Under the pieces are notes generated by a model, which was given only the letters and a program-made list of their open reading frames with translations, did not search any database and was not told the origin of the DNA. Shown piece by piece: positions 1,878 through 54,964 of a DNA stretch of 64,000 nt (position 1 is its first letter; each line of letters starts with the position of its first letter). The position numbers were made by a program, and so were the translations under genes. Source of the stretch: an uncultured Rhodospirillaceae bacterium (lineage in GTDB: Bacteria; Pseudomonadota; Alphaproteobacteria; GCA-2731375); assembly GCA_964344935.1 (NCBI GenBank), contig CAYFPL010000001.1, forward strand, positions 1,276,303 through 1,340,302, read 5' to 3'.

Positions 1878-3494
1878 TCAGTAATCTCGCGCCGTGCCCT
1901 CTGTCGTAACGAAGCCTTCCACTAAATCGGCTTCGATCGCGTCTTGTGACCGGTCAGTCGGCTTGCCGAATCCGCCGCCGCCAGCCTCAATCAGGGTGAT
2001 GCGGTCGCCGGGCTGCAGTTCGTAGTGGCCCTTGGGGTCGACCGTTACATCGTTGATCCGGTGTTCCCTGGGCCGGCCCGGTTCGCCGCCCATGAGGCCC
2101 AAGGGTGGAAAGTCGGTGCGGTTAGCCATGCAGAAGACATTCATGATGTGACCGCTGTCGTTGCGGATCACCACCTCCTGGCCCAGGCCGCCGCGAAAGG
2201 CGCCCGCGCCGCCTGAATCTGGCAACAGGTGTTTGTGGGTCACCGTGGTCGATGTCAGAGTCTCCCAAACTTCCACCGGCACCACGGCCATGTTGGAGGG
2301 GCCCGGCGTGGTCTCGGCCCCGTCGCGGCCGTCCAGGGCACCGAAGCCGCCGGAGGCGAAATAGATGGTTGAAACGTCATGGCCGTCCCGGTGCCGGCCC
2401 TGAAAAGTCATCAGGTCGAGCATGCCGCAATCGGCCTGGATCTGTTCCGGCACTGCTGGCGCCAGGGCGCCGAATACCAGGGGCGAGACGAAATGGCCGA
2501 TCATGTGCCGCGCCCCGGTGGGCGAGGGCGGCTGCGCATTCAAAAGGCAGCCTTCCGGCGCCGTCACGGTAACGGGCACCACGCTGCCGCCATTATTGGG
2601 CAACTCCGGTGCGGTCAGGCACTTGATGGAGTAGAGCACCATGGCCTTGGTGTAACAGAACGGTACGTTGATGCCCTGGCGCACGCCGGGCGCTGTACCG
2701 GCGAAATCCACAGACAGGGCATTGCCCGCAACCTGGACCTTGCAGGCCAGGGTCAGGGCGCCCTCGACCCCTTCGATCTGAATGGCGTTTTCATAATCGC
2801 CGTCGGCCATTCTCCCGATCGCCGCCCGCGTCGCCTGTTCCGAGCGGCCGCGGATCTGCCCCGAGAGGGCCTGGAAGTCGGGCAGGCCGTATTCATGCAG
2901 GAAGGCCATGAGCATGTCATCACCCGCCTTCACGGCGGTGACGTTTGCCATCAGATCGCCGATCACTTGGTCCGGTGCGCGCACATTATTGCGCACCAGT
3001 TCGATAATGAAATCGTTGCGCCGGCCCGCTTCGAACAGCTTGCAGATCGGCAAGCGCAGGCCTTCGTGATAAATCTCCCGCGCCGCTGCGCCAAAGCCCA
3101 GGCCGCCTACATCCGGCAGGTGGGTGATGGAGATCACGTAGGCGACGATGCGGCCCTCGTGAAAGACCGGGCGCATAACGTTGATGTCAAATGTATGACC
3201 GGTGCCAAGCCAGGGATCGTTGGTGATTACGACATCGCCGGGCCGCAGGGTATCGGCGGGGAATTTGGCCAGCATGTGGGCCAAAGTGGCAGGCGCAGTG
3301 CCCATGAACACCGGCACGCTGTAGGTACCCTGGGCCATCAACTCGCCGTCCGCGTCCAGCAGCGCTACAGTCAGATCATAGCTTTCGCTGACGATGGTGG
3401 AGAACGAGGTGCGGACGAGGGTAGTGACGATCTCGTCAGACACCGCGACCAAGCGGTCCCACATGATGCCCACGCTGACAGCATCCAGGCTCAT
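1878..3494 (-). CDS. Hydantoinase B / oxoprolinase family protein (second paralog)
   Basis: 538-aa ORF (NDPWLGTGHTFD, HLPDVGG). Convergent with the plus-strand HyuB-like gene, 16-bp gap. Start ATG overlaps the stop of the upstream hyuA-like gene (ATGA at 3491-3494). Confidence 0.85.
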   Translation of the reverse strand: MSLDAVSVGIMWDRLVAVSDEIVTTLVRTSFSTIVSESYDLTVALLDADGELMAQGTYSVPVFMGTAPATLAHMLAKFPADTLRPGDVVITNDPWLGTGHTFDINVMRPVFHEGRIVAYVISITHLPDVGGLGFGAAAREIYHEGLRLPICKLFEAGRRNDFIIELVRNNVRAPDQVIGDLMANVTAVKAGDDMLMAFLHEYGLPDFQALSGQIRGRSEQATRAAIGRMADGDYENAIQIEGVEGALTLACKVQVAGNALSVDFAGTAPGVRQGINVPFCYTKAMVLYSIKCLTAPELPNNGGSVVPVTVTAPEGCLLNAQPPSPTGARHMIGHFVSPLVFGALAPAVPEQIQADCGMLDLMTFQGRHRDGHDVSTIYFASGGFGALDGRDGAETTPGPSNMAVVPVEVWETLTSTTVTHKHLLPDSGGAGAFRGGLGQEVVIRNDSGHIMNVFCMANRTDFPPLGLMGGEPGRPREHRINDVTVDPKGHYELQPGDRITLIEAGGGGFGKPTDRSQDAIEADLVEGFVTTEGTARDY

Positions 3495-5557
3495 TCTCCG
3501 CCCTCCAGTTCCGCGACCAGGTTGCCTTGTGGATCGACGCGCACCCGATCGCCGGGGCCGATCACAACGGTCGACTCCCGCTCTTCGATCAGGGCCGGGC
3601 CGGCAATCTCCGCGCCAGTGGCCAGTTGATAGCGGTCATAGACCGCCGCCGACTGGAACCCCCCGTCAAAATAGGCCTGCCGGTTGCCCTTGGCGATCAC
3701 GGCATCCGCGCCATTGGGAGCCGCCGTGAAAAGGGCTGGTGCAGGTGCGACGGCCTCCACCTTCCAGGTTGTGATGACCAGCGGCGCATCCAGCAAAGCA
3801 GCGCCATACACCGCCGCATAGGACTCACGAAACAATGCCGGGATATCGGCAAGTTCGGCACCGGCGGGCAAGCTGACTTCGATCTCGTGCCCCTGACCGT
3901 GATAACGCATGTCCAGACGGCGCAGCATCTCGGTCACCTGATCCGTAGCCCTTAAGGGCGCACCGGCCTGTTGTTCCAGGGCCGCGAAAGTGTCTTGAAA
4001 GTCCGCCGCCGTCAGATCGTCGAGAAAAATCTGTCGGGTGCGGGCTACTTCGAAAGTCAGGGGACTGGCCAGCAGCCCCAGGGCCGACATCACGCCCGCT
4101 GCCACCGGAAAGACCACCTTAGCGATGCCCAGTTTGCGCGCCACGCCCAGGGCATGCACCGGGCCGGAGCCACCGAAGGCGATCATGGTGCTGTCGCGGT
4201 AGTCAAAGCCCCGTTCCGAAGCGTGGATACGAAAGGCGCGGGCCACGTCTTCGTCGATGATCTCGTGGATACCCCAGGCCGCTCTTGCAAGCGACAGATC
4301 CAAGGGTGCTCCCACCGATGCGTCGATGGCATCTTCCGCCGCTTTTCGGTCCAGGGCCATGGCGCCGCCAAGGAAGAAGTCAGGGTCAAGGTAGCCCAGG
4401 GCCAAGTTGGCGTCCGTCAGCGTGGAGCATTCACCGCCCTGGCCATAACAGGCCGGTCCTGGATCGGCGCCGGCGCTTTGCGGCCCCACGGCTATGGCGC
4501 CGCGCACGTCAGGCTGGGCGATGGACCCGCCACCGGCGCCGATTTCGATCATATCGATCACCGGCGCCCGCACCGGCATGCCGCTGCCCGCCTTAAAGCC
4601 ATGCACCCTTGCCACTTCCTGGTGATATTCCTTGATTGCCCGGCCGCCGCGGATCAGGGCGCCCTTGGCCGTGGTGCCGCCCATATCGAACGACAGCACC
4701 TTGTCGCAAGCGAGGGCCCGACTGTGATGGGCTGACATCTGCGCCCCCGCCGCCGGGCCGGATTCAATGACGCGAACAGGAAAGCGCCGGGCGGTTTCCG
4801 GTGTCAATGTGCCACCACTGGATGACATGACATAAAGACCACCAGAGAATCCTAATTCCGCCAAGCCATGTTCCAGACGCCCCAGATAGTCGTCGAACAT
4901 GGGCTGGGTAAAGGCATTGAGCGCCGTGGTGGTGAAGCGCTCGAACTCTCGCCATTCGGGACAGACCTCGCTGGAAACGGAAACCGCGAGATCAGGGAAA
5001 TCTTCCGCCGCCATCGCCGCCAAGGCCTGTTCCTGCTCAGTATTGGCATAGCTGTGCAATAGACAGATGGCCAGGGAGGTGATGTTGTGTTCCTCGACCA
5101 ATTGGCCAAGATTGCGCCGCGCCTCCTGCAGATCCAACGGCACCTCGATGGTGCCATCGTAGTGACAGCGCTCCGTGACCTCGGCCCGCATGCGTCTTGG
5201 CACGATTGGATCGGGGAATGTCAGGCGAAGATCGAAGACGTCGTAGCGTTTCTCCTGCCGCATATCCAGGATGTCACGGAAACCCTTGGTCGTCAGCATG
5301 CCGGTGCGGGCGCCCTTGCGTTCGATTACCGCATTGGTGACCAATGTGGTGCCGTGGACGATCTCGCGCACCGCCGCCATGCTCACATCCTCCCGCACCA
5401 GCAGGGTCCGCGTTCCCTCAAGTACCGCACGGGACGGATCATCAGGTGTCGTCAGTTGCTTGTGAATGGCCAATCGCCCGCCCCGTTCGTCGTAGAGCGC
5501 GAAATCGGTGAAGGTGCCGCCGATATCGACGCCCAGTCTGTAGGGGCGGTCGGTCAT
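3491..5557 (-). CDS. Hydantoinase A / oxoprolinase family protein (HyuA-like)
   Basis: 688 aa. N-terminal RLGVDIGGTFTDFAL ATPase motif of the hydantoinase_A / ASKHA fold. Forms an A/B pair with 1878-3494. Confidence 0.85.
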   Translation of the reverse strand: MTDRPYRLGVDIGGTFTDFALYDERGGRLAIHKQLTTPDDPSRAVLEGTRTLLVREDVSMAAVREIVHGTTLVTNAVIERKGARTGMLTTKGFRDILDMRQEKRYDVFDLRLTFPDPIVPRRMRAEVTERCHYDGTIEVPLDLQEARRNLGQLVEEHNITSLAICLLHSYANTEQEQALAAMAAEDFPDLAVSVSSEVCPEWREFERFTTTALNAFTQPMFDDYLGRLEHGLAELGFSGGLYVMSSSGGTLTPETARRFPVRVIESGPAAGAQMSAHHSRALACDKVLSFDMGGTTAKGALIRGGRAIKEYHQEVARVHGFKAGSGMPVRAPVIDMIEIGAGGGSIAQPDVRGAIAVGPQSAGADPGPACYGQGGECSTLTDANLALGYLDPDFFLGGAMALDRKAAEDAIDASVGAPLDLSLARAAWGIHEIIDEDVARAFRIHASERGFDYRDSTMIAFGGSGPVHALGVARKLGIAKVVFPVAAGVMSALGLLASPLTFEVARTRQIFLDDLTAADFQDTFAALEQQAGAPLRATDQVTEMLRRLDMRYHGQGHEIEVSLPAGAELADIPALFRESYAAVYGAALLDAPLVITTWKVEAVAPAPALFTAAPNGADAVIAKGNRQAYFDGGFQSAAVYDRYQLATGAEIAGPALIEERESTVVIGPGDRVRVDPQGNLVAELEGGE

Positions 5558-5567
5558 GGCTGTCTCG

Positions 5568-7148
5568 TCACCGGTTATCCGGCAGGACGTCGACTGCGTC
5601 GCCGATGCCTCGTTCCCGCAACTCGTGGCGGGCGATCTCGTTTTTGGTCATGGTGCGGGGGAACTCCTCGACGAATTCGATGTAGCGCGGCACCTTGAAA
5701 AAGGCAATGCGGTCCTTGCACCATTCCACCAGTTCGCCCGGTTCAACCTCCGCGGCGGTTTGCACATAGGCCTTGATGTCTTCTTCGCCTATTTCCGAGG
5801 GCACGCCGACCACGGCGCAATCGACCACAGCCTCGTGGGCCGTCATGGCTTTCTCTACTTCAAAGGCGGAGACGTTCTCGCCGCGGCGGCGGATCCAGTG
5901 GGCCTCCCGACCGACAAAATAGACGAAGCCGTCCTCGTCCAGATAGCCCAGATCGCCGCTGTGGTACCAAAGGTTCTTCCAAGCAGCCAGGGTCTCATTG
6001 GGCTTGTTGATGTATTCCATCATGTAGGTATTGGGCACCTTGGGGCGGAGCAGGATCTGCCCGGTGGTATTGGCGGGCACAGGGTTGTCGTCTTCATCCA
6101 CGATCAGAACCTCGGCCCAGCCGTGGGGCCGGCCGCAGGAGCCGAGGCGACGGTCGAAAGTCCGTTCGCTGCAGATCAATACGCCCATCTCGGTCATGGA
6201 ATAGACCTCCATCATCGGCGTGCCGAAGCGTTCCTCGAACTCGTCACGCAGATCCCGGCGCACCTGACCCGCCGCGATGCCGACACCGATCCTAACCTTA
6301 TGGTCCATGTCCTTGTTCGACTTGGGCGCCCGCAGCAGCACGGCCATCATGGTGCCCAGGGGATCGATGATGGTAACGCCGTATTTACGGATTGTGGTCC
6401 AGTAGTTGGAGGCCGAGAACCATTTTTCCATGACCCCGGTCATGCCGTGATAGAGGGGGCCGGTGATGGCAAACTGCTGGCCGCCGATATGGAAGAAATG
6501 GGAATTGGCGAAATGCACGTCATCTTCGGTCGCTTCGGCGATATCGCCGTACCTGATGGCGGCAGCGATGTAATAGAGGTGTGAAACGAGCACTCCCTTG
6601 GGCATGGATGTGCTGCCGCCGGTGTAAACGATGCACATGGGATCCGCCGCGGCGACCTGGGCTTCGGGCAGGCTATCGTCGTCACCAACCAGGTCGTCGT
6701 ATGGCAAAGCGCCATCGACGGCGGTTTCGTCGCCCAGGACCAGAACCGTGGGTGCCACGGTCAATTCCGGCCTGGCGGCGATATAGGCGCGCGTCAATTC
6801 CTCGTCCACCACGAACAGCTTAGCGCCCGTGTCGTTCAGGGAATAGCAGAGGTCATCTTTGACCAGGGAGACGTTGAGGGCAGCGTAGACGGCGCCGATC
6901 TTGGCGCAGGCGAACCAGATCACCGCCTGCTCGATCGAATTGTACATCAGGGTTGCGACCACATCGCCCTTGCCGATGCCGTGTGCAATCAGACGGTTCG
7001 CCACGCGATTGGATAGCTCGTGGGCGTCGCCATAAGTCAGGGTGACGTCCCGGCAGATCAGGAACGGTTTCTCCCTCAATTCGGCCCGCATAATGATCAG
7101 GTCCCGCAAGGTTTCCGTATGGGGCGTGCGCCCCATAATGTCGATCAT
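5568..7148 (-). CDS. AMP-dependent synthetase/ligase (acyl-CoA synthetase family)
   Basis: AMP-binding signature YTGGSTSMPKG. Start chosen at ATG 7148 (MIDIMGRTPH), preceded by GAGGGTGGG. The longer ORF to 7187 would overlap the upstream gene by 26 nt. Confidence 0.8.
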   Translation of the reverse strand: MIDIMGRTPHTETLRDLIIMRAELREKPFLICRDVTLTYGDAHELSNRVANRLIAHGIGKGDVVATLMYNSIEQAVIWFACAKIGAVYAALNVSLVKDDLCYSLNDTGAKLFVVDEELTRAYIAARPELTVAPTVLVLGDETAVDGALPYDDLVGDDDSLPEAQVAAADPMCIVYTGGSTSMPKGVLVSHLYYIAAAIRYGDIAEATEDDVHFANSHFFHIGGQQFAITGPLYHGMTGVMEKWFSASNYWTTIRKYGVTIIDPLGTMMAVLLRAPKSNKDMDHKVRIGVGIAAGQVRRDLRDEFEERFGTPMMEVYSMTEMGVLICSERTFDRRLGSCGRPHGWAEVLIVDEDDNPVPANTTGQILLRPKVPNTYMMEYINKPNETLAAWKNLWYHSGDLGYLDEDGFVYFVGREAHWIRRRGENVSAFEVEKAMTAHEAVVDCAVVGVPSEIGEEDIKAYVQTAAEVEPGELVEWCKDRIAFFKVPRYIEFVEEFPRTMTKNEIARHELRERGIGDAVDVLPDNR

Positions 7149-7161
7149 TATCCCACCCTCG

Positions 7162-9177
7162 CTATTCGAACTGTCCGGCGAGGCCAACGGCGCCGGCCTG
7201 TTTCAGCGAGTCTATCTCGTCGTCGGCGAGGGACAAGACCCGGGCTAGGACCTCGCCGTCCTCATCACCCAGGATCGGTGCCGGCTTGTGGACGGCGGGC
7301 CGGCGGCCATCAACCCGCCAGGGGGCTGCAACCAATTCGTCCTCGCCGGTGAATGGATGCACAGACGGGACCCAGCCGCTGCAGTCGGCGAAGACCGATG
7401 CGCCGTCGGTTTCATCCAACTCCAGCATGTCGGTGTAATCGCCATCCCGCTCGCTGCAGGCTGCAACGATCTCGGCACGGCTGGCGCCATCCAAGGCCTG
7501 ACGCAGCGCCAACTTGTCTGAAAAGACCGCAACCGGAAAACTCACGGCGATATAACTGCCATCGTCGGCCGCCAGGATATCGCCTACGGTCTCCTCGTCC
7601 GGCATGGGCGTTCCTGCGAGGGTCGCCGCTGCTTCGATCTGGGAAACATCGAAAGCGCGGCCCTTCCCGTCGGCATGGACAGCCAAGGCGCCGGCAAGTA
7701 TGCCCATGGCGCCAAAGGCGGCGGCATTGGGATCCGACAGTGAGAAGGTCGGCGAGCCCAGGAATTCATCGCCTTCGCGGACCTGATCCTCGGCCCCGCC
7801 CAGGGCGCTCAAGACCAGACCATAAGAACGCAGGGCCTCGACACTGGAACCCCGGCCCGGGCCGCTCATGGACATCTGCACCAGTTTCGGATTGGCGTGC
7901 GCCAGGGCGGCTGCATCCAGTCCCAGGCGCTCCATGGTACCCACGGTGAAATTTTCGATCAGCAGGTCCGATTTCGCGGCAAGTTCTAGGGCCAGCCGCA
8001 AACCTTCCTCATGCTTCAGGTCCAGGGTCAAGCCGGATTTGTTGCGGTTCAGGCTATGGAAATAGAGCGAAGATTCGATCCTTGTCTTTTCGTCCATCTT
8101 CTTGCGCAAATGCTCCAGACCCCGGGTGCGGTAGAGATCGAAACGGCCCGGCGCTTCGACCTTGATTACGTCAGCGCCCAGGTCGGCGAGAATCTGGCCG
8201 ATCATGGGACCGGACCAGACCCAGCAGAGTTCCAGGCACCTGAGCCCGGCCAGCGGTCCGTCACCCCCGGCCATGTCCGCCCATGGATTCGATCCGCCCA
8301 CGCCGCTGCCCTGTTCGTGAATCTGAAACGGCATGCAGGGGACATCATCGACAATGAAACTGTCCCTGAAGACATCGCGCTCGGCCGCCTCCGCCTGGCT
8401 ATAAACCGGCGCGATGACGGCGCCATGAGCCAGGCCCTGGCGCAAGAGCTGATCGCGGCTGAACTGGGCCAGCGTGTCGCGCATCAGATCGTCCGCCTCT
8501 GCACTGTCCCGGGCCAGGGTGAAGGGATCTTGGAAGGCCTCGTCCTTGGCCCAGTCCGGATCGCCGATGGCCATGCGGATTTGCTGCCAATCCCGCCGGG
8601 AGCGGCCCAAAAGCGCCACATGGCCGTCCTTGCAGGGATAGAACCCCATAGGGAAGATGCCGCCATGATCAACACAGATGTGGCCATTACGCCGCCAGCT
8701 ACGGACCATCTCTTCCCGGCCGCCGGAATTCTGTAGGGAGAATACGCGGATCACATCGGCCGCCGAGACGTCGTACTCGATTTTTCCGTCGGCACCGTCA
8801 CGGCGGCGCCAGGCCTCCGCCAGGGCCAGGATGACGCCATAGATGCCGCACCATTTTTCGGGCATGTCGGCGGGCAATGGTCGGCCGGGGCCGTCCCTGT
8901 ATCCAATCACCGAGGCCGCACCGCCAACGGCACTGGCCAGGACGCCGCTGCCCCGACAGCCGACCTGGAAATCCCAGAGTCGGATCACACACGCAGCCTC
9001 GGACGGCTGATTATCGGCGACGATGGCAATGTCGGCCTGGTCCGGGTCCTGAGTGACGGAACCGCCTAACGCCTCAAGCCAATGCCGGGCATAATGGACG
9101 GACCGGTTGCCGGTCGATACTGCAATGCTTGCCGCCGCATCCAGCGGCAATTTCCTCGTTGGGCTCGCCGGGTTCAT
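7162..9177 (-). CDS. Family III CoA-transferase (CaiB/BaiF-like), unusually long tandem two-domain protein
   Basis: The C-terminal ~370 aa form a complete CaiB/BaiF-like domain (LRCLELCWVWSGPMIGQILADLGADVIKVEAP...). The N-terminal ~290 aa resemble the central and C-terminal part of a second CoA-transferase III domain. ORF track start 9183 is TTG. ATG at 9177 lies 2 nt after the upstream gene's stop. Confidence 0.75.
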   Translation of the reverse strand: MNPASPTRKLPLDAAASIAVSTGNRSVHYARHWLEALGGSVTQDPDQADIAIVADNQPSEAACVIRLWDFQVGCRGSGVLASAVGGAASVIGYRDGPGRPLPADMPEKWCGIYGVILALAEAWRRRDGADGKIEYDVSAADVIRVFSLQNSGGREEMVRSWRRNGHICVDHGGIFPMGFYPCKDGHVALLGRSRRDWQQIRMAIGDPDWAKDEAFQDPFTLARDSAEADDLMRDTLAQFSRDQLLRQGLAHGAVIAPVYSQAEAAERDVFRDSFIVDDVPCMPFQIHEQGSGVGGSNPWADMAGGDGPLAGLRCLELCWVWSGPMIGQILADLGADVIKVEAPGRFDLYRTRGLEHLRKKMDEKTRIESSLYFHSLNRNKSGLTLDLKHEEGLRLALELAAKSDLLIENFTVGTMERLGLDAAALAHANPKLVQMSMSGPGRGSSVEALRSYGLVLSALGGAEDQVREGDEFLGSPTFSLSDPNAAAFGAMGILAGALAVHADGKGRAFDVSQIEAAATLAGTPMPDEETVGDILAADDGSYIAVSFPVAVFSDKLALRQALDGASRAEIVAACSERDGDYTDMLELDETDGASVFADCSGWVPSVHPFTGEDELVAAPWRVDGRRPAVHKPAPILGDEDGEVLARVLSLADDEIDSLKQAGAVGLAGQFE

Positions 9178-9179
9178 AC

Positions 9180-10472
9180 TCAATCAGTAGCAAGCGGCAA
9201 GGGCACGGGCCCGTCGGATTTTGATGGCAGAGCAGTTACAGCCGTGCCGCGCGCCGACAACATATTCACTTGGTTGCGCGCCTCCACCTCCAGATCGACG
9301 AATTTCACGGCACCTTCGTCCCGTTTGCCCGTTACCTTGCCCCGCCACCACAGGGTATCGCCAACCATATTCGGTTTCAGTACGTCGACGGCCAATTTAT
9401 GCAGGAAACCGTGATCGCCGATCCAGTTGGTCAGCATGTGCTGCGCCCAGGCGATACGCTGGGGGCCTACATCGTAGGCTCCCCCCATGCCCACGTCCCG
9501 CCCGGTAGAGGCTTCCAGATGCCCGCGGCCAGCGGAATCCTTGGCCCCGGTTTCCTTGTTGATGTGATAATCCGCATGGCGGCGCCGATAACGGACCACG
9601 TCACCGTGCACGCCGCCGTAATGCAGCGCCCCCTGGGCGGCGGCATACCAGCCGATGATATCCATGATGGTCAGTGGACCCTTGATCACCGGCGGCACGT
9701 CATCGCCGATCTGCACATCCTCCCAGTAGAGCGGATCCGTGCCCCGCCGGGGCTCCGCCAGGATTTGTTCCTCGATATCCGCGAGTTCCGCCGGCTCGTA
9801 ACGATGGGGGACATGTCCCTTGGGTTCCTTGCCATCCTTGCGCTGACTGCCATCGCCCCGCGGCGTGCGGGCGCATTTGCCTACCGCGAAGGCGATCAAG
9901 GCGCCTTGTTGGTTATGGTATTTCAATTCGCCGGTCTGCAGAGCCCATTTGCCGAAACGGCGGCCGGATTTCACTTCCTGCTTGGTCAGCATTACATCCA
10001 CCTTGAAACTGTCGTCCAGGCGGATGTGGTCATACCAAGTCCATTCCGTGCCGGCATAGATCCATTGCACGCCGGCCAACTTGGGCGCGACGATGGTGGA
10101 ATCCACCGCATAAAGAATGCAGGGTGGCGCTACGATGCCCCCTGTAGGTCCGGCGGCAGCGTAATCCGCATCGAACCACAACGGGTTGTTGTCGCCGACG
10201 CCCCAGGCAAAATGCCGGATCGCATCCTTCGTCGCGGCTTCGATCCATTGCATGCGGTCGCGCCGCAGGGGTACGCCGATCAGTTCGGCGGCGGCGGCTA
10301 GGGTTTCTTCGTTGATCTTTCCCCAGGTCAAGTCAATCAGATCTCGTCCCGTACGTGCGACATGATTTAAGTGGCGGAATGCGCCCGCCCTCTTTGGGGC
10401 GGTGCGCAATAACGTCGATGGCGTAATAACCCTCAAAGTCTCCCGAATGGGAGCGCCGTTGTCAATCCACAA
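9180..10472 (-). CDS. MaoC-like (R)-specific enoyl-CoA hydratase/dehydratase, double hotdog fold
   Basis: Two hotdog-like halves (FAS1-like dehydratase N-domain plus MaoC C-domain). Stop TGA abuts the start of the CoA-transferase. The 5' end is uncertain: the ORF track starts at a TTG, with internal TTG/ATG candidates. Confidence 0.65.
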   Translation of the reverse strand: MWIDNGAPIRETLRVITPSTLLRTAPKRAGAFRHLNHVARTGRDLIDLTWGKINEETLAAAAELIGVPLRRDRMQWIEAATKDAIRHFAWGVGDNNPLWFDADYAAAGPTGGIVAPPCILYAVDSTIVAPKLAGVQWIYAGTEWTWYDHIRLDDSFKVDVMLTKQEVKSGRRFGKWALQTGELKYHNQQGALIAFAVGKCARTPRGDGSQRKDGKEPKGHVPHRYEPAELADIEEQILAEPRRGTDPLYWEDVQIGDDVPPVIKGPLTIMDIIGWYAAAQGALHYGGVHGDVVRYRRRHADYHINKETGAKDSAGRGHLEASTGRDVGMGGAYDVGPQRIAWAQHMLTNWIGDHGFLHKLAVDVLKPNMVGDTLWWRGKVTGKRDEGAVKFVDLEVEARNQVNMLSARGTAVTALPSKSDGPVPLPLATD

Positions 10473-10475
10473 TAA

Positions 10476-10510
10476 TATTGTCTATAGACAATAATTGTCG
10501 TCGCAATTAT
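10476..10510. promoter_or_regulatory. Putative operator: 18-bp perfect palindrome TATTGTCTATAGACAATA (10476-10493) overlapping a second inverted repeat ATAATTG-N6-CAATTAT (10491-10510)
   Basis: Read directly in the 43-bp AT-rich gap between the dehydrogenase gene end (10516) and the start of the long minus-strand operon (10472). Core TTGT-N6-ACAA resembles GntR/FadR-type boxes. Confidence 0.45.
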
Positions 10511-10515
10511 CTCAC

Positions 10516-11448
10516 TTACTCGCTCTCCAAAACCGCCCGAATATCGGCGGGATCCACTTCGATTTCCACCCCGGCACGCTCTTGTTGCAGGATCATGGCG
10601 GAGCGGGAATCCCTATCCCCCCAGCCCCGCCCCAGGGCCTCGGTCATATCGGCCACGGTGGCATTGATCAGACGCATGGGCACACCGAATTCACGCCCCA
10701 GCTCCGCCGCCAGGCTGACGTCTTTATGAGCCAGTTTCAGAGCAAAGTCGGCCGGGTCGTAGTTGTTAATCAGGTAATGCTCACCCAAGCTATCGAAAGT
10801 ACGCTGACGGCCCCGCGCCCCCTGGCGCACGGCCTCCCATAGGGCCAGGGGTTCCACGCCCGCTTTGACACCAACGGAGAAAACTTCCGCCAGGGCGGTC
10901 TGAATAGCATAGCCGGCGGCATTATGAACCAGCTTGGCAATGGAGCCGGCGCCGATGGGCCCGATATAGCGCACCTGATCGCCCAAGGCGTCCAAGGCTG
11001 CCCGGTGGGCGTTGAAGATTGCTTCATCACCTCCCACCCAGATTGCCAACTTACCCGAGGCCGCCCCCTTGGGCCCGCCGCTGACCGGTGCGTCGAGGCA
11101 GTGCAAACCCTTTTCGGCCATGACGCTGTGGACTTGACGGATCGCGGTCGGGGAATTGGTCGACAGATCGAACAGCACCGTGCCGGGCGCCATGCCCGCG
11201 ATCAGTCCGTTCTCGGCATCCAGGGCGACGGCTTCCACCTCTGGTGGGCCAGGCAGAGAGGTCAGGATGACATCCGAGGCCGCCGCCAATTCCCGCGGGC
11301 TGTCAGCCCATGCCGCACCCGCGGCCAAGTGGGGTTCGGCGACTTGGCGGTGAATATCGTGCACGGTTGTTTCGAAGCCGGCCTTGATGATGTTCCTGGC
11401 AAAGGATGCCCCCATAGTGCCCAGGCCGATAAATCCGATCTTTGCCAT
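10516..11448 (-). CDS. NAD(P)-dependent 3-hydroxyisobutyrate dehydrogenase family oxidoreductase (MmsB/GarR-like)
   Basis: N-terminal Rossmann motif MAKIGFIGLGTMG. 310 aa, typical beta-hydroxyacid dehydrogenase length. Confidence 0.85.
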   Translation of the reverse strand: MAKIGFIGLGTMGASFARNIIKAGFETTVHDIHRQVAEPHLAAGAAWADSPRELAAASDVILTSLPGPPEVEAVALDAENGLIAGMAPGTVLFDLSTNSPTAIRQVHSVMAEKGLHCLDAPVSGGPKGAASGKLAIWVGGDEAIFNAHRAALDALGDQVRYIGPIGAGSIAKLVHNAAGYAIQTALAEVFSVGVKAGVEPLALWEAVRQGARGRQRTFDSLGEHYLINNYDPADFALKLAHKDVSLAAELGREFGVPMRLINATVADMTEALGRGWGDRDSRSAMILQQERAGVEIEVDPADIRAVLESE

Positions 11449-11451
11449 GGC

Positions 11452-11760
11452 TTAGTCCTGCCCTTCCAGGACTTCCAAGGCCACACGGCCCGCATTCACT
11501 GCCGTGGGCCAGCCGGAATAAAACGCCAGATGGGTTATCAAGCCGAACAGTTCTTCCTTTGTGACGCCGTTGTCGATGGCGCGGGCCATATGCCCTTTCA
11601 GTTCCTCCGTTCGGTAAAGGGCGATGAGCACCGCCACGGTGGCCAGGCTGCGGTCCCGTTTTGAAAGTTCGGGCTGCTCCCAGACATCGCCGAACAGCAC
11701 CTCGTCACGCAAATTCCCCAATTGCGGGATGAGATCGTAGGGTGTTTTCTTCTCTGCCAT
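11452..11760 (-). CDS. Carboxymuconolactone decarboxylase (CMD/AhpD-like) family protein
   Basis: 102-aa protein with a CMD-family core. RBS AAGGA upstream. 3-nt gap to the downstream dehydrogenase gene. Confidence 0.75.
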   Translation of the reverse strand: MAEKKTPYDLIPQLGNLRDEVLFGDVWEQPELSKRDRSLATVAVLIALYRTEELKGHMARAIDNGVTKEELFGLITHLAFYSGWPTAVNAGRVALEVLEGQD

Positions 11761-22248: not shown

Positions 22249-22956
22249 ATGGCTGAGCCCGGGAATTACGCACCACGGGATTGGCAGAGCCATCCCCCCT
22301 ATCTCGCACCGGAGTACAAATCAACGCCGCTGCGGGCACCGACCAAGCCCCTGGTGATCCTGCCCCAGAACCTGTCTGAACTAACCGGGCCGGTCTATGG
22401 CCAGGACGCGGTCGGACCGCTGGATCACGACCTGACCAAGTCGGCCGCGAAGAACGGTGAACCAAATGGCGAGCGCATTATCGTAGCGGGCAAGATGACG
22501 GACGAAGACGGGCGCCCGGTGCCCAATATCCTGCTCGAGGTTTGGCAGCCGAACGCGGCGGGACGTTACAACCATGCCGACGACCAGCACGATGCCCCCA
22601 TCGATCCGAACTTCCTGGGCGCGGGCCGCTGTGTGACCGATGACGAGGGCCGATATCGTTTCATCACCATCAAGCCGGGCGCCTATCCTTGGGGCAATCA
22701 CTTCAACGCCTGGCGGCCCAACCATATCCATTTTTCCCTGTTCGGCCCTTCGATCCTGACTAGGTTGATCACCCAGATGTATTTCCCCGGCGATCCGCTG
22801 CTGGAGCTGGATCCCATCTTCAATGCCACGCCGGCCGCCACCCGTGACCTGTTGGTTTCGAAGTTGTCCATTGAGCTGTCCGAGCCGGAATGGGCGCTGG
22901 GTTATGAATTCAACATCTGTCTGCGCGGCCGCGTCGCCACGCCCATGGAGACGTGA
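22249..22956 (+). CDS. pcaH: Protocatechuate 3,4-dioxygenase beta subunit
   Basis: Strong PcaH signatures (ERIIVAGKMTDEDGRPVPN, AWRPNHIHFSLFGPS, QMYFPGDPL). Confidence 0.9.
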   Translation: MAEPGNYAPRDWQSHPPYLAPEYKSTPLRAPTKPLVILPQNLSELTGPVYGQDAVGPLDHDLTKSAAKNGEPNGERIIVAGKMTDEDGRPVPNILLEVWQPNAAGRYNHADDQHDAPIDPNFLGAGRCVTDDEGRYRFITIKPGAYPWGNHFNAWRPNHIHFSLFGPSILTRLITQMYFPGDPLLELDPIFNATPAATRDLLVSKLSIELSEPEWALGYEFNICLRGRVATPMET

Positions 22957-22958
22957 GC

Positions 22959-23534
22959 ATGGCGCCGAAACAGACCCCCTCGCAGACGGTGGGCCCATAC
23001 TTCGCCTATGGCCTGACGCCAGAGCAATACGGCTACGACTACAAACAGCTCGCCGGCAACAGCCTGAGGGAGGACGGCGCCGAGCCGATCATCATCCGGG
23101 GCCAGGTATTCGATGGCAATGGCGATACCGTGCGGGACGCTGTGTTGGAACTGTGGCAGGCCGACAGCCAGGGCCGCTACGCCCATCCCGCCGACCAAAG
23201 GAGCACCAACACCGGTTTTGGCGGTTTCGCCCGGGTCGGAACCGGAACCCGGGATGGCAATTTCTACGAGTTCGAGACGGTCAAGCCGGGCGCCATCGGC
23301 GACGGCCAGGCGCCCCATATCACCGTGGTCCTGTTCATGCGGGGTTTGTTGAACCACGTCTATACCCGCATCTACTTTTCTGACGAAGCAGCAGCCAACA
23401 GCGACGACCCTGTCCTGAACCTGGTTGATGAAGACCGCCGCGGCAGCCTGATCGCCCATCGAGAAGACGGCAATACCTACCGTTTCGACATCCACATGCA
23501 GGGTGACAGGGAAACCGTGTTTTTCGACGCCTGA
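22959..23534 (+). CDS. pcaG: Protocatechuate 3,4-dioxygenase alpha subunit
   Basis: PcaG-like (TPSQTVGPYF, APHITVVLFMRGL, ends ETVFFDA). Start 3 nt after the pcaH stop. Confidence 0.9.
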   Translation: MAPKQTPSQTVGPYFAYGLTPEQYGYDYKQLAGNSLREDGAEPIIIRGQVFDGNGDTVRDAVLELWQADSQGRYAHPADQRSTNTGFGGFARVGTGTRDGNFYEFETVKPGAIGDGQAPHITVVLFMRGLLNHVYTRIYFSDEAAANSDDPVLNLVDEDRRGSLIAHREDGNTYRFDIHMQGDRETVFFDA

Positions 23535-23539
23535 GGCCG

Positions 23540-24829
23540 ATGATACTGGATGCTTACCTGCAGGACCCTGATACGGAGGCTTTGATCTCCGATGCGGCAC
23601 TTGTGGCCGCCATGCTGGAGGTGGAAGCGTCCCTGGCCCGCGTACAGGGTCGCCTGGGCATCATTCCGGCGGAGGCTGCGGATCGCATCGTCGAAACGGC
23701 CACCAGCCTGGACGTAGATATCCCCGCATTGGGCCTGGCCACGGTCAAGGACGGCGTCCCCATAACGGACTTTGTCGCACAATTGCGTGCTGGTGTGGGC
23801 GAGGCTCATGGCGGCTATGTGCATTGGGGCGCCACCTCCCAGGACATTGTCGACACCGCCTTGGTTCTGCTGTTTCGGGTCGCTTTGGACCTGCTTGCGG
23901 GCCGTCTCGACGAACTGATCGGGGTCTGGGGCGAATTGGCCGACCGCCACCGCGCCACCGTCATGGCCGCCCGCACCCGCAACCAACAGGCCGTACCCAC
24001 CACATTTGGCCTGAAGGCAGCGGGCTGGATTGCGCCTCTGTTGCGGCATAGACGCCGCTTGGAAGCCCTTCAGAAGGATGGCCTGATGCTGCAGTTCGGC
24101 GGCGCCGGCGGCACCCTGGCGGCATTGGGTGACCGGGGCCCGGCCGTTGTGGAGGCCCTGGCCGCTGAACTGGAGCTGCCGTTCCCCATCATGCCCTGGC
24201 ACAATCAGCGCGACGGCTTTATGGACCTGGCCAACTGGCTATCCATGACCAGTGGCAGCTTGGGCAAGGCAGCGGATGATATCCTGCGAATGGCGCAGTC
24301 GGAGGTGGGCGAGGTCCGCATCGAAGGCGCAGGCGGTTCCTCCACCATGCCGCAAAAGGCCAACCCGGTTCTGGCGGAGGCCGTGGTCGCACTGTCCCGC
24401 CACAATGTGGGGCTGGCTGCCAATATGCAGCACGCCGCCTTACATGCTCACGAACGGGATGGCGTAGCCTGGACCATGGAATGGCTGGCCCTGCCGCAAA
24501 TGGTCCGCACCAGCGCCGCCGCTTTGCGCCATTCCCTGGATATCGCCCGCAACCTGCATGTGGACGCGGAGCGTATGCAGTCAAACTGCGGCCCGTCCTT
24601 GCTGGCGGAGGCCGCCGTCTTCGCCTTGAGCGAACACATGACGAAAGCAGAGGCCCAGGCATTGGTGAAAGCGGCCTTGACGGAGGCAACAGGGACGCGG
24701 GATATGTTCCAAATCCTGGCCGGCCGCACCACGGCACCGGTTGATTGGGAGAAACTGCGCGACCCAAGAACTTATCTCGGCGCCGCGGACGTCTTCATCG
24801 ACAGAATCTTGGAGGAGATCAAATCATGA
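23540..24829 (+). CDS. pcaB: 3-carboxy-cis,cis-muconate cycloisomerase (fumarate-lyase superfamily)
   Basis: Class II fumarase/aspartase family signature GSSTMPQKANP. Size and position directly after pcaHG fit PcaB. Confidence 0.85.
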   Translation: MILDAYLQDPDTEALISDAALVAAMLEVEASLARVQGRLGIIPAEAADRIVETATSLDVDIPALGLATVKDGVPITDFVAQLRAGVGEAHGGYVHWGATSQDIVDTALVLLFRVALDLLAGRLDELIGVWGELADRHRATVMAARTRNQQAVPTTFGLKAAGWIAPLLRHRRRLEALQKDGLMLQFGGAGGTLAALGDRGPAVVEALAAELELPFPIMPWHNQRDGFMDLANWLSMTSGSLGKAADDILRMAQSEVGEVRIEGAGGSSTMPQKANPVLAEAVVALSRHNVGLAANMQHAALHAHERDGVAWTMEWLALPQMVRTSAAALRHSLDIARNLHVDAERMQSNCGPSLLAEAAVFALSEHMTKAEAQALVKAALTEATGTRDMFQILAGRTTAPVDWEKLRDPRTYLGAADVFIDRILEEIKS

Positions 24830-41335: not shown

Positions 41336-42568
41336 TCACTCCTCCAGCTCGTCCAATACGGCCAGCATGATGCGAATTCCCGCGGCGATATCGGTCTCGC
41401 TGGTACGTTCCGCCGGGTTATGGCTTACGCCACCGTCGCTACGCAGAAAAATCATTCCTACATCGCAAAGTTCCGTCATGGCGGCGGCATCATGACCGGC
41501 GCCGCTGGTCATCCTGACGGGCTGAATGCCGCAGGCGGTTACCGCCCGTTCAATGGCATCCATCATATTGGGCGCACATGGGGCAGATGTCGCCTCGTGA
41601 AATACATTGATACGCGCCTCTGCTCCGCGCTTGTCCGCCGCGGCGCGAATGGCGCGGATGATGGCTGCGACCGCGTCTCGTCGCGACGCATCCTCCCTGG
41701 CGCGCACATCCACGGTAAAATTGACTTCACCTGGAATGACGTTGATGGCGCCAGGCGCAGTACGCATGATACCTACCGTCCCGACGACGTCTTCCATCCC
41801 GGCACAAATTTCCTCCACCGCCAACACGCCCTGGGCAGCCACCGTCAAGGCGTCCTTGCGCAAGGTCATGGGCACCGTACCAGCATGTCCCGCCTCGCCT
41901 GTAACGACGACAGACAACCGGGTCTGGCCATTGATTGCAGTGACGATGCCCGCCGGCAGGCCCAGGGATTCCAGTACCGGGCCCTGTTCGATATGCAGTT
42001 CCAGAAAGGCTTTCACGTCCTCGGGGCCGCGGGCCGCCTGTCCGATCTGCTCCGCATCCAGGCCGAAGTCCGAAAGGGCTTGGCGAAAACTGACCTCGTC
42101 GCCGTCGGTCCGCTCCAATGTCTCGGGATCCAATTTTCCGGCCAAGGCACGGCTGCCCAGATAGGTGGTGCCGAAACGAACCCCTTCTTCATCGCCAAAT
42201 CCTATGACCTCGATAGGGTAGGATTTCCGTTTTCCGGTCCGGGATAGGGCCTGGACACAGGCAATGCCGCACAAAACCCCCAGCATGCCGTCAAACTTGC
42301 CCGCATTGACCACCGTGTCCAAATGGGAGCCGATCAACAATGCCGGACTACCGGGCTGGGAGCCCTCGTATCGGCCGACGATGTTGCCGGCCGCATCCTG
42401 GCGGCTCTCCATTCCTGCGGCCGCCATCCATTCACCCACCAGTCTATTCACCCGGCGATGCTCGTCCGTCAGGTAGCGGCGTGTGAGGATGTCGGCGTCT
42501 TCACTCACTGCCGCCAGCTTGTCGATGCGCTGCATGACCTCGCAGGCCAATGCTTCAGCCGAATTCAT
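41336..42568 (-). CDS. allC: Allantoate amidohydrolase / N-carbamoyl-amino-acid hydrolase (M20 family)
   Basis: M20 AllC/HyuC family similarity (LIGSHLDTV, GFGDEEG). Start ATG 42568 (MNSAEALACEV). Confidence 0.75.
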   Translation of the reverse strand: MNSAEALACEVMQRIDKLAAVSEDADILTRRYLTDEHRRVNRLVGEWMAAAGMESRQDAAGNIVGRYEGSQPGSPALLIGSHLDTVVNAGKFDGMLGVLCGIACVQALSRTGKRKSYPIEVIGFGDEEGVRFGTTYLGSRALAGKLDPETLERTDGDEVSFRQALSDFGLDAEQIGQAARGPEDVKAFLELHIEQGPVLESLGLPAGIVTAINGQTRLSVVVTGEAGHAGTVPMTLRKDALTVAAQGVLAVEEICAGMEDVVGTVGIMRTAPGAINVIPGEVNFTVDVRAREDASRRDAVAAIIRAIRAAADKRGAEARINVFHEATSAPCAPNMMDAIERAVTACGIQPVRMTSGAGHDAAAMTELCDVGMIFLRSDGGVSHNPAERTSETDIAAGIRIMLAVLDELEE

Positions 42569-43430
42569 GCAGGGCCTCGTGGGAATTCTCGATGCGTGCG
42601 AGTCTGTTGCGACCCCGGGCACCCATTTCCCGCATGACCGCCATGGCGTGGAAATGCATTAGCGACATGACGCCGGCATATCGATCAAAGGCGTCCGCAC
42701 CACGTATGGGACAGCGAACAGTCCAATCGGCCGAACCGCTGCCGCCCGCATCCTGGTCAGTAAAGTAAAGGGTCGCCGCGCCCGCATCCCGTACCAAGGC
42801 CAGGGTTTCCGAGACGGCCCTGACACGACGACGGAAGCCGAGGAGAATGGCCATGTCCGTCTCGTTAAGGTCTGCCAACGATTCCGCCATTGTCTCGCCG
42901 CCCCGGGGCAGAAGATGCACATCATCGCGCACTTGAATCAGTTGCCAGCGCAGATAACCGGCCAGGTATTGGCTATTCCGCCAGCCGATCACGAATACCC
43001 GGTCCGCTTCGCAAATGGCCTTGATACTGGCGGCGAATGCGCCGGCATCGACGCCATCCAGAGATTGGGACAACAAAGCCGCGTCCTGGCGCAAATGATC
43101 GTGGGCCAATGTGCCGAAATCCTGATCGTCCCCGTCCATCTGATCCCGGTTCAACAGATACAGGGGCGACCCGGCCCTGGTATCGTCGCGGGCCGCCCGG
43201 CGCATGGCCTCAAACCCGGCATAGCCAAGCCGGTGGCACAACCGGGTCACCGCGGCCTTAGAGGCGCCGGCAAGCTGAGCCAGTTCGGTCGCGGAATAAC
43301 TGGCAATCTGCCCCGGAAAATCCATGATCAGGTCACCAACTTTGCGCTCGCTTTCCGGCAAGGCGCCATAGTGGGCACGAATACGGGATTCGAGCGCTGA
43401 CTCCAGGACTGGCGATTGCGGCTGGCTCAT
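42555..43430 (-). CDS. MurR/RpiR-family transcriptional regulator (HTH plus SIS domain)
   Basis: N-terminal HTH (ATELAQLAGASKAAVTRLCHRLGYAGF) and a C-terminal SIS sugar-isomerase-like domain. Divergent from the adenine deaminase gene. Confidence 0.8.
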   Translation of the reverse strand: MSQPQSPVLESALESRIRAHYGALPESERKVGDLIMDFPGQIASYSATELAQLAGASKAAVTRLCHRLGYAGFEAMRRAARDDTRAGSPLYLLNRDQMDGDDQDFGTLAHDHLRQDAALLSQSLDGVDAGAFAASIKAICEADRVFVIGWRNSQYLAGYLRWQLIQVRDDVHLLPRGGETMAESLADLNETDMAILLGFRRRVRAVSETLALVRDAGAATLYFTDQDAGGSGSADWTVRCPIRGADAFDRYAGVMSLMHFHAMAVMREMGARGRNRLARIENSHEALHEFG

Positions 43431-43479
43431 GGCTTGCTTTCAGGTAGCCGGGTATCCATGTGAAACCTAAACCAAAGGC

Positions 43480-43523
43480 AATTGAAATTACAATTTCAAT
43501 TTTCGTGATTTTGAAAACAAAAT
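43480..43523. promoter_or_regulatory. Two candidate operators in the divergent promoter: AATTGAAATT-ac-AATTTCAATT (43480-43501) and ATTTTG-aaaa-CAAAAT (43508-43523)
   Basis: Perfect inverted repeats read directly in the 138-bp AT-rich gap between the RpiR regulator and the adenine deaminase gene. Confidence 0.45.
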
Positions 43524-43598
43524 TTTATATCATGGTTTGGCTGTCCGGCACGAGGATAGTGACAGACTGTGGCTCAGGTGATTGGGGATCGACGACAG

Positions 43599-45308
43599 AT
43601 GGTTGACAACGCGGCGATCTTGGCCCGGCGAATTGATCAAGCCCTGGGCCGCGTGCCTGCCGATCTTGTTGTAAAGAACACCCGTTACCTGAATGTCATC
43701 GACGGCGCCATGGTGGAAGGCGATATCGCCATCGCCGGCGACACCATCGTCGGTGTACAGGCGGATTACCGGGGGAATCAGGAAATTGACGGCCGCGGTA
43801 AGGTGGTGGTGCCGGGTTTCATTGATACTCATGTCCATGTGGAAAGCACCTGCATCTCACCCTGGCAGTTCGACCAGGTGGTATTGCCCCGTGGCACCAC
43901 CACGGCAATCTGCGATCCCCATGAAATCTGCAACGTCTTGGGCACCAGAGGTCTGGAGTACTTCTTTTCTGCCTCGGAAAACCTGGTCATGGATCTCCGT
44001 GTCCAGCTTTCCAGTTGCGTACCGGCAAGCCACCTGGAAACCTCCGGTGCGGTCATGACGGCGGCTGATCTCCTCCCTTACAAGGACCACCCCAATGGCA
44101 TCGGCCTGGCCGAGTTCATGAATTATCCAGGCCTTCTGGAGAAGGACGGGGAGGTATTGGCAAAACTCGCCGCCTTTTTCGGCAGCCATATCGACGGCCA
44201 TGCACCCATGGTTTCGGGCCAAGACCTGAACGCCTATTGCGCCTGCGGCATCAAGAATTGCCATGAAAGCACGTCGCTTTCTGAAGCGGCCGAGAAGCTT
44301 TCGAAAGGCATGCAGGTGCTGATCCGGGACGGTTCCCTGTGCAAGGATGTGGTTACCCTGACTCCCCTGATCAATGATCTCACATCTCCCTTCCTTGCCT
44401 TCTGCACCGACGACCGCAATCCCCTGGATATCGCCGTGGAAGGCCATATGGATCATCTGATCCGCACGGCAATCGCCAACGGCGCGCCGCAAGGCGCGGT
44501 TTATCGGGCGGCAAGCTGGTCGGCGGCCCAGGGCTTCGGGCTTCGGGACCGCGGTTTAGTGGCGCCGGGATACCGGGCGGATCTGGTATTGCTGGACGAC
44601 GTCGCCGATTGCGCCGTCGCAGCCGTGATCCGCGATGGACAATTGGTGGATGAAGACGCCTTTTCCGAACATCGGCCTGAACTCTCTATCGGCCGCCGTT
44701 CCATCAAACTGGATCCAGTGGACCCGTCCATATTTGCGGTGCCGGCGCCTGGCCCCTCGGGTCCTGTCATCGGCTTGGTCCACGACGGGGTGATCACCCG
44801 CCATTTGACCATGGAACTTCCCTTCGCCGACGGCGTTCGCCTGCCCGATCCCGACAATGATGTTCTGAAAGTGGTGGTATTGAATCGCCACGGCGGCAAC
44901 CGGAATATCGGCCGCGGCTTCATCAAGGGATTCGGATTTCGGGATGCCGCGATCGCATCCAGCGTTGGCCACGACGCCCACAATGTCATCGTGGTCGGCG
45001 ACCATGACGGCGACATGGCGGTGGCGGTCAATCATCTGATCGGGATCGAGGGCGGTTTCGCGGTGGTAAAGGACGGGCAAGTGCTCGCCGATCTGCCCTT
45101 GCCGATCGCTGGTTTGATGAGCGACCGGCCAGCAGACGAAGTCGTGACGAAACTGCGGCGCCTGCGCGCCGCGGCCAAGGATATTGGCTGTCCGCTGCCG
45201 GAACCTTTTCTGCACATGGCTTTTCTACCCCTATGTGTAATACCGCACCTTAAAATCACCGACCACGGGCTTGTTGACGTGGATAAGTTTGAATTGATTG
45301 CTGCATAG
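43599..45308 (+). CDS. ade: Adenine deaminase
   Basis: Adenine deaminase family (VPGFIDTHVHVES, ~570 aa). Start ATG 43599; an alternative GTG is at 43569. Confidence 0.8.
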   Translation: MVDNAAILARRIDQALGRVPADLVVKNTRYLNVIDGAMVEGDIAIAGDTIVGVQADYRGNQEIDGRGKVVVPGFIDTHVHVESTCISPWQFDQVVLPRGTTTAICDPHEICNVLGTRGLEYFFSASENLVMDLRVQLSSCVPASHLETSGAVMTAADLLPYKDHPNGIGLAEFMNYPGLLEKDGEVLAKLAAFFGSHIDGHAPMVSGQDLNAYCACGIKNCHESTSLSEAAEKLSKGMQVLIRDGSLCKDVVTLTPLINDLTSPFLAFCTDDRNPLDIAVEGHMDHLIRTAIANGAPQGAVYRAASWSAAQGFGLRDRGLVAPGYRADLVLLDDVADCAVAAVIRDGQLVDEDAFSEHRPELSIGRRSIKLDPVDPSIFAVPAPGPSGPVIGLVHDGVITRHLTMELPFADGVRLPDPDNDVLKVVVLNRHGGNRNIGRGFIKGFGFRDAAIASSVGHDAHNVIVVGDHDGDMAVAVNHLIGIEGGFAVVKDGQVLADLPLPIAGLMSDRPADEVVTKLRRLRAAAKDIGCPLPEPFLHMAFLPLCVIPHLKITDHGLVDVDKFELIAA

Positions 45309-54886: not shown

Positions 54887-54964
54887 TGTTTTTTGCAATA
54901 AACAAGGCGTGTTTGGACTTCGTCAATAATTCCCTGCCATCATGATTAGCGGAGGTAGGTAGAC

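Follow-up and report, generated by a model that had tools for sequence, protein, structure and literature searches.

A conserved two-box operator and promoter, very likely for an uncharacterised IclR-family regulator, inside a catabolic gene cluster of an uncultured Rhodospirillaceae bacterium

The window, i.e., the whole 64-kb stretch of DNA that was analysed here, carries a run of putative catabolic genes interrupted by an intergenic gap that holds a perfect 18-bp palindrome. The genes flanking the site all lie on the minus strand and, from 5′ to 3′, are the following:

5′ of the CMD-family gene and on the same strand, minus: metallo-beta-lactamase-fold (MBL) gene
11452-11760, minus: CMD-family gene, preceding the dehydrogenase gene
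10516-11448, minus: 3-hydroxyisobutyrate/tartronate-semialdehyde dehydrogenase-like protein, 310 aa, upstream of the gap
10332-10515, minus: intergenic gap of 184 bp, from the dehydrogenase stop codon to the dehydratase start codon, 49.5% GC
9180-10331, minus: double hot-dog MaoC/FAS1-like acyl dehydratase, 383 aa, start TTG, the first gene 3′ of the promoter
7162-9183, minus: fused family III CoA-transferase
5568-7187, minus: AMP-forming acyl-CoA ligase
3491-5557, minus: hydantoinase/caprolactamase-like subunit A
1878-3494, minus: hydantoinase/caprolactamase-like subunit B

The gene order of the co-directional set (1878-9183) is identical in the loci L002, L009 and L017. The NCBIfam matches, all of them far below the cut-offs, gave no substrate for the pathway. 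The CoA-transferase (7162-9183) is a 673-aa fusion in which the Pfam domain was matched from residue ~310 onward only; in one set of relatives (group B, see below), the corresponding parts are encoded separately (384 aa and ~318 aa) and in the reversed order. Genes for the beta and alpha subunits of protocatechuate 3,4-dioxygenase, together with a lyase-family gene (possibly a cycloisomerase), were found about 12 kb away at 22249-24829 on the opposite strand, and the box matrix scan described below detected no box in that region.

The position of the palindrome relative to the dehydratase depends on the start codon of this gene. The 120 homologues listed are 377-410 aa long, nearly all of them 381-396 aa, and cover 98-100% of the 383-aa product that begins at TTG 10331. 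The same TTG was picked by the gene caller on an identical metagenome contig, and the dehydratases of relatives begin likewise, with TTG, GTG or ATG followed by ACC-TGG-GG codons (M-T-W-G). A sequence-only reading of this DNA had placed the palindrome 4 nt from the first ORF, a figure that refers to the longest possible ORF (TTG 10472). Since translation really starts at TTG 10331, about 145 nt separate the palindrome from the dehydratase start codon downstream of it. The same reading had put the site at the head of a long operon. The MBL, CMD and dehydrogenase genes precede it on the same strand, and the site is thus located in an internal intergenic region.

The 184-bp gap contains the operator, the promoter and a predicted 5′ leader of about 100 nt. 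We assigned the following features to it:

10491-10510: second inverted repeat, ATAATTG-N6-CAATTAT, specific to the window
10476-10493: box 1, perfect 18-bp palindrome TATTGTCTATAGACAATA, with the 14-bp core TTGTCTATAGACAA at 10478-10491 (minus strand 10491..10478)
10459-10472, minus (10472..10459): box 2, TTGTGGATTGACAA, with TTGT-N6-ACAA arms retained; contains the -35 hexamer; 19 bp from box 1, centre to centre
10460-10465, minus: putative -35 hexamer TTGACA, present as TTGACA in 8 of 9 group A sequences and most of group B
10437-10442, minus: putative -10 hexamer GAGACT, 17 nt after the -35; GAGACT, AATGAT or GATGTT at equal spacing in relatives
near 10430, minus: predicted transcription start, about 55 nt downstream of the box 1 centre (box 1 at ~-55)
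10385-10402, minus: G+C-rich hairpin CCGCCC-N6-GGGCGG in the predicted 5′ leader, without a T-run after it
10337-10366, minus: possible 3′-end remnant of a luciferase-like monooxygenase gene (ending IMSHVRDEI-stop vs EVMPHVQT-stop, a weak resemblance)

The sequence at 10476-10493 is indeed a perfect palindrome of 18 bp, as the sequence-only reading had it, with an even-centred dyad, and it is the longest perfect palindrome of the 64-kb window. By itself it has no significance, because perfect palindromes of at least 18 bp arose in 103 of 300 first-order Markov random windows; the significance is supplied by conservation across species. Within the window, there is no further copy at ≤3 mismatches from the 18-mer, and a search with the 14-mer core, also at ≤3 mismatches, gave box 2 as the sole additional match.

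The GC content is 30% at 10473-10515 (43 bp) and 61% in the whole window, the latter being lower than the 65% first given for the surrounding DNA. The observation that these 43 bp are exceptionally A+T-rich holds for their neighbourhood, where the minimum GC of any 43 nt between 5 and 16 kb is 28% at 10459 and the next lowest value is 35% near 14815, but not for the window as a whole, the minimum of which is 16% at 43485.

The second inverted repeat, ATAATTG-N6-CAATTAT, was also read correctly as sequence, but it has a counterpart in none of the relatives compared. Its arm at 10504-10510 resembles the spacer after the dehydrogenase stop codon of L002 (TAAGTGAGATAATT vs TAAGGGAGATACATT), and the other arm is the flank of box 1. 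This repeat is probably incidental. The earlier assignment of it to the element does not fit with its lack of conservation and with an arm that is seemingly dehydrogenase-side spacer. The genuine second site, which had been overlooked, appears to be box 2 at 10459-10472, which flanks the palindrome on the opposite side and overlaps the -35 hexamer.

To place the gap in a comparative context, we used orthologous dehydratase loci from assemblies and from one genome per species (37 species-representative loci). The source genome is outside the species-representative set, and its closest species is that of L017 (83% identical). Upstream of the orthologous suboperon, the same block order, namely box 1 TTGTCTATAGACAA, 5 nt, box 2 TTGTGGATTGACAA with TTGACA, 17 nt and the -10 hexamer, was found in 16 of the 37 other species. 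The window 14-mer with ≤2 mismatches gave 21 matches in 15 of the 37 species loci, while shuffles gave a mean of 0.55 and a maximum of 3. The block invariably lies 5′ of the first gene of the orthologous suboperon, irrespective of its upstream neighbour, which is a molybdenum hydroxylase in L002, L012, L013 and L041, a divergent IclR gene in L014, L015 and L017, and a co-directional IclR gene in group B.

Group A comprises Rhodospirillaceae-like MAGs with dehydratases 76-83% identical, in which the block was aligned gap-free (nine distinct sequences). Box 1 of this group is TTGTC-ATAGACAA, and box 2 is either TTGTGGATTGACAA or TTGCACATTGACAA. The information content is 1.77 bits per column for either box, compared with 0.36 on the upstream side, 0.39 on the downstream side, 0.78 within the spacer and 0.98 in the -10 region. 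Group B includes Hoeflea, a Rhizobiaceae MAG, Sphingobium aquiterrae, Rhodobacteraceae and others; here TTTTCTATAGAAAA is followed by TTGTATATTGACAA with centres 20-21 bp apart, and TTGT-N6-ACAA is retained in box 2 of most loci. In the distant contexts L058 and L084, box 2 has a weaker left arm and may be mostly the -35 hexamer plus one half-site.

Using a matrix made from the sites of other genomes alone, we scanned the 64 kb of the window, and the two highest scores fell on box 1 (26.9 bits) and box 2 (13.2 bits), in this order. The third match, TTTGCAATAAACAA (12.3 bits), is located at 54892-54905 between an RPE65-like carotenoid oxygenase gene and a 159-aa ORF and is probably due to chance. 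The matrix scores of the 37 species loci were bimodal (≥19.4 vs ≤11.9). Based on this cross-species conservation, the original suggestion that the palindrome is an operator for a transcription factor is very probable.

It should be noted that some close relatives (dehydratase 76-79% identical) have no box at the orthologous promoter, namely L009 (6778-6936) and L010, as well as L016, L042 and L043. In L009 and L010, unrelated sequence precedes a TTGACC -35, and it includes a loose CAAAGG...CCTTTG inverted repeat. This suggests that the L009/L010 lineage swapped its regulator.

The putative promoter has the form of a sigma-70-type one, with position-conserved hexamers at a spacing within 16-18 nt (TTGACA-N17-GAGACT), and a dyad site lies within or next to its core (the palindrome and the TTGT-N6-ACAA box over TTGACA). 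Wherever TTGACA occurs in groups A and B, a -10-like hexamer always follows 17-18 nt further on; GAGACT itself is a poor match to TATAAT. Another promoter obtained by a simple scan, ACGACA-N18-TATTAT with the palindrome in its spacer, was rejected, since its -35 sits in unconserved sequence.

The palindrome might act at the RNA level, as a hairpin that terminates or processes the transcript of the upstream dehydrogenase; a role as terminator hairpin only had been named by the sequence-only reading as an alternative that would refute its operator. The site starts 23 nt past the dehydrogenase stop codon on the same strand, and the palindrome is able to form a 7-bp stem. This stem, however, is rich in A+T, lacks a G+C clamp and is followed by no proper U-tract; the terminator scan made no call, the fold energy was within that of shuffles (z = -1.2), and no Rfam match was obtained. 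Furthermore, the substitutions in relatives are one-sided, mostly pair-breaking and non-compensatory (TTGTCTATTGACAA, TTGTCCATAGACAA, TTGTCGATAGACAA), and the box is retained in L014, L015 and L017, whose upstream gene is divergent and leaves nothing to terminate. We therefore consider an RNA hairpin function highly improbable. As for the G+C-rich hairpin of the leader (10385-10402), it folds no better than shuffles (z = -1.1), and the aligned place in L002 holds a different hairpin-forming sequence.

The genes around the module differ from those of relatives. Between the dehydrogenase gene and the box, relatives carry genes for a methionine-synthase-like protein and a second CMD protein, usually also for a three-subunit molybdenum hydroxylase and, in some of them, for an IclR regulator, and in most relatives a luciferase-like monooxygenase gene lies between the box and the dehydratase gene. 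The window is devoid of all these additional genes, and L015 also lacks the monooxygenase. The leader of the window can be aligned with the monooxygenase leader of L002 and L041 (ACGCCATCGA, GGCG-GCG-AT), the resemblance being weak. The operator-promoter module thus seems to have been retained while genes on either side of it were lost. In L012, three tandem 15-nt units (GTCCAGACTTAGGCG, the third with one change) are located at 9955-10000, between the luciferase-like stop codon and the dehydratase start.

With such changes in gene content on both sides of the gap, the palindrome might be taken for a gene-loss scar, a mobile-element remnant at a gene-order breakpoint or a chance product of an A+T-rich spacer, and about a third of random windows do contain a perfect palindrome of this length. 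Against this, the block is conserved and its flanks are variable, 16 of the 37 species loci have it at the orthologous position, it is present as a single copy in the window, and neither terminal repeats nor a target duplication were seen. An origin of this kind is extremely improbable.

The boxes of relatives are linked to regulator genes. A divergent regulator ORF starts 13 nt from box 1 in L014, L015 and L017, and in group B a co-directional regulator gene ends 49-213 bp before box 1. Pfam HTH_IclR and IclR_C domains were detected in all seven neighbouring regulators tested; a linked gene of this architecture occurs in the relatives and is missing from the window itself. The neighbouring regulators represent two orthologous groups, which are 28-36% identical to each other. 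The occurrence of the regulator and of the box in the 37 species loci was as follows:

IclR orthologue present: box present in 11 loci, box absent in 0 loci
IclR orthologue absent: box present in 5 loci, box absent in 21 loci

The association has a Fisher's exact p = 5e-6, a generous value because the loci share descent. The box was 13-213 bp from the regulator gene in 11 of 11 loci with an IclR orthologue. Besides the window, five loci carry the box with no IclR gene within the fetched DNA.

An independent route led from the box to the regulator. Metagenome contigs were selected solely by the 16-mer ATTGTCTATAGACAAT, which gave at least 120 contigs, mostly low-GC and unrelated, with an informative high-GC subset. 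Of the high-GC matches listed, L058, L082, L084, L143 and L149 have an IclR orthologue with 45-57% identity, the regulator of L110 is identical to that of L014, and L121 has a cut fragment. The distance between the orthologue and the box on these contigs is 14-130 bp in most cases and ~1.3 kb in L149. In several of the contigs selected in this way, the box has other neighbours, i.e., genes for an acyl-CoA ligase, a paralogous dehydratase, a CoA-transferase or a thioesterase. The 16-mer was also seen in tandem or in 3-4 nearby copies (L072 at 1045-1078; L049, L060 and L114; L133 and L166; L081 and L152). Because some of the low-GC contigs have no detected IclR orthologue, it is possible that boxes like ATTGTCTATAGACAAT serve other regulators in unrelated bacteria.

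In L029, L030 and L038, an additional box precedes the gene of the regulator itself by 30-40 nt, and in L034, L037 and L047 such boxes precede further operons belonging to the same cluster. By its placement in L029, L030 and L038, and likewise in L014, L015 and L017, the site is positioned for control of the regulator's own gene, which fits with negative autoregulation. The recognition-helix segment PST-LHILR-L of the regulators has invariant S, T, H, I, L, R and L in 13 proteins that are 28-87% identical overall, and this invariant DNA-reading segment would fit with a common CTATAG-centred box.

No linked regulator reached the curated NCBIfam cut-off of a named IclR subfamily (BhcR, PcaR/PcaU/PobR, AllR or KdgR). 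Because the best NCBIfam scores are far below the cut-offs, we assign the linked regulators to an unnamed subfamily. The solved structures matched by them are generic IclR entries only (5tjj, E = 5e-18; BlcR 3mq0, E = 2e-8). In the literature searched, no paper pairs TCTATAGA with IclR, and GTCTATAGAC appeared solely in unrelated primer lists.

The sequence-only reading had favoured a GntR/FadR-like factor. Some FadR-subfamily operators have TTGT..ACAA arms, and the operators of this subfamily share with box 1 an even-length dyad, TTGT/ACAA-like arms and a catabolic target. The site in the window is without an adjoining regulator, and low-GC metagenome contigs in which no IclR orthologue was found also contain ATTGTCTATAGACAAT, sometimes in tandem. 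However, wherever a regulator gene adjoins the box, its family is IclR, and in the relatives the box-coupled regulator at 13-213 bp in 11 of 11 loci is of the HTH_IclR plus IclR_C type. Around about 25 sites, the genes next to the box encode enzymes or IclR proteins, and none of them was seen to be GntR-like (Pfam was run on part of them); the box was linked to a GntR gene in no locus examined. A GntR-type operator would be a short dyad with a GT..AC core and a short spacer, and here the TTGT and ACAA arms are 6 nt apart around the conserved CTATAG centre. The linked IclR proteins share an invariant DNA-reading helix. A dimeric repressor of the GntR/FadR type, or of another non-IclR family, with its gene elsewhere is a very improbable owner of this operator. 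A LysR-type T-N11-A site was also rejected, since an odd-centred dyad is expected for it and the dyad is even-centred, and no LysR-like neighbour was seen.

As the sequence-only reading stated, no regulator gene is adjacent to the site. A tblastn search of the 64-kb window with seven IclR orthologues gave no match, and according to Pfam analysis of about 40 window ORFs and inspection of the gaps, the sole regulator is an RpiR-like gene (42555-43430, minus strand) 32 kb off. The latter lies in a purine/urate catabolism cluster. The most A+T-rich spot of the window (43485) falls in the divergent gap 43430-43569 between this gene and an adenine deaminase gene (43569-45308, plus strand), which is probably another operator-promoter region.

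Based on the above results, we suggest that the palindrome is very likely box 1 of a two-box operator and promoter bound by an uncharacterised IclR-family regulator. From the sequence, its conservation and the linkage to IclR genes, as observed in the compared loci, we infer the binding, the oligomeric state, the direction of regulation, the effector and the transcription start as follows. The minus-strand sigma-70-type promoter would drive the dehydratase, CoA-transferase, acyl-CoA ligase and hydantoinase-like genes. Box 1 would be the primary site for one dimer of the regulator, which may bind as a dimer of dimers, one dimer per box, on the same helix face (centres 19-21 bp apart). The bound regulator would cover the -35 and exclude RNA polymerase, and a pathway metabolite on its C-terminal domain is proposed to trigger the release.

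It is also conceivable that the same operator and IclR regulator work in the other direction, with the protein acting as an activator or a dual regulator that sits at about -55 and -36 and aids RNA polymerase when effector-bound, as for PcaR, PcaU and PobR. The centre of box 1 at ~-55, upstream of the -35, and the weak -10 (GAGACT) agree with such a role. Some IclR proteins with sites over the -35 or just upstream of it, PcaR among them, are activators. In addition, the right arm of box 2, ATTGACAA, is a direct repeat of the right half of box 1, ATAGACAA, and the PcaU and PobR sites consist of a palindrome plus a direct repeat. On the other hand, a perfect TTGACA with the 17-nt spacer in nearly all relatives argues against dependence on an activator, box 2 covers the -35, and boxes 13-40 nt from the regulator's own start codon have the placement expected for repression. 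We regard activation or dual control at this operator as unlikely. If the site is an IclR operator, repression is the rather likely mode, given that the -35 is perfect and that boxes occur at 13-40 nt from the start codon of the regulator itself; activation retains some room, since the -10 is weak and box 1 lies upstream of the -35.

Both modes have precedents in the family. As summarised by 10.1101/2023.07.27.550818, IclR proteins bind as dimers or tetramers, their repressors occlude RNA polymerase, and TtgV binds as a tetramer; PcaR is described there as a dimer of dimers over the -35/-10 that represses its own gene and activates from that site overlapping the -35/-10, which speaks for an activating role here.

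The repressor-type IclR operator proposed for the window has its nearest counterparts in the operators of TtgV (Pseudomonas putida) and BlcR (Agrobacterium), two repressors of the family that bind paired promoter sites as tetramers. As in the system described here, an IclR protein is genetically linked, two dyad-like boxes about two helical turns apart overlap the -35, and the regulator gene is divergent or adjacent (here, in the relatives). The BlcR operator has a two-palindrome layout, and BlcR (PDB 3mq0) is among the few solved relatives of the linked regulators (E = 2e-8). Unlike in these systems, the operator sequence is different and the protein similarity is low. A tetramer, as reported for TtgV with occlusion of RNA polymerase (10.1101/2023.07.27.550818), would be the form assumed here as well.

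Two other groups of IclR proteins are comparable by their targets. BhcR of the beta-hydroxyaspartate cycle of marine Alphaproteobacteria is the best NCBIfam match (67-68 bits) and, similarly, an IclR protein that controls a carbon-assimilation cluster in bacteria of this class, but the score is far under the 350-bit cut-off and the regulated genes are unrelated. The PcaR/PcaU/PobR family is the second-best match of both regulator groups (TIGR02431, 62-67 bits) and has a catabolic operon as a target; however, the linked regulators, being far under the 285-bit cut-off, are non-members, the box sequences differ, and the PcaR/PcaU/PobR proteins activate.

Taken as a whole, this is a textbook combination of repressor, operator and promoter within a known family, and it changes no concept. 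What is new is the box sequence, which was absent from the literature searched, the unnamed IclR subfamily and its tie to an uncharacterised CoA-dependent catabolic cluster. Since the regulator gene is absent from the window, the site could be an orphan in this organism. We tentatively propose a wider picture, which is possible though less than even in our estimation: the box and the invariant PST-LHILR-L helix may define an undescribed IclR subfamily, the regulon of which would be uncharacterised CoA-dependent catabolic clusters with a double hot-dog dehydratase, a family III CoA-transferase, an acyl-CoA ligase and a caprolactamase-like enzyme, widespread in marine and other Alphaproteobacteria, and the module of the window may have survived two flanking gene losses, including that of the adjacent regulator. 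If this is true, the switch in the window would be controlled in trans from a distant gene, or it would be an orphan site that leaves the operon constitutive.

The two boxes provide a concrete operator sequence for an unstudied IclR subfamily, TTGTCTATAGACAA with the variant TTTTCTATAGAAAA, and thereby a handle on a conserved, uncharacterised CoA-dependent catabolic cluster of uncultured marine Alphaproteobacteria. The box can be used for delimiting the regulon in complete genomes, and the regulator together with its box would be a potential biosensor once the effector is known.
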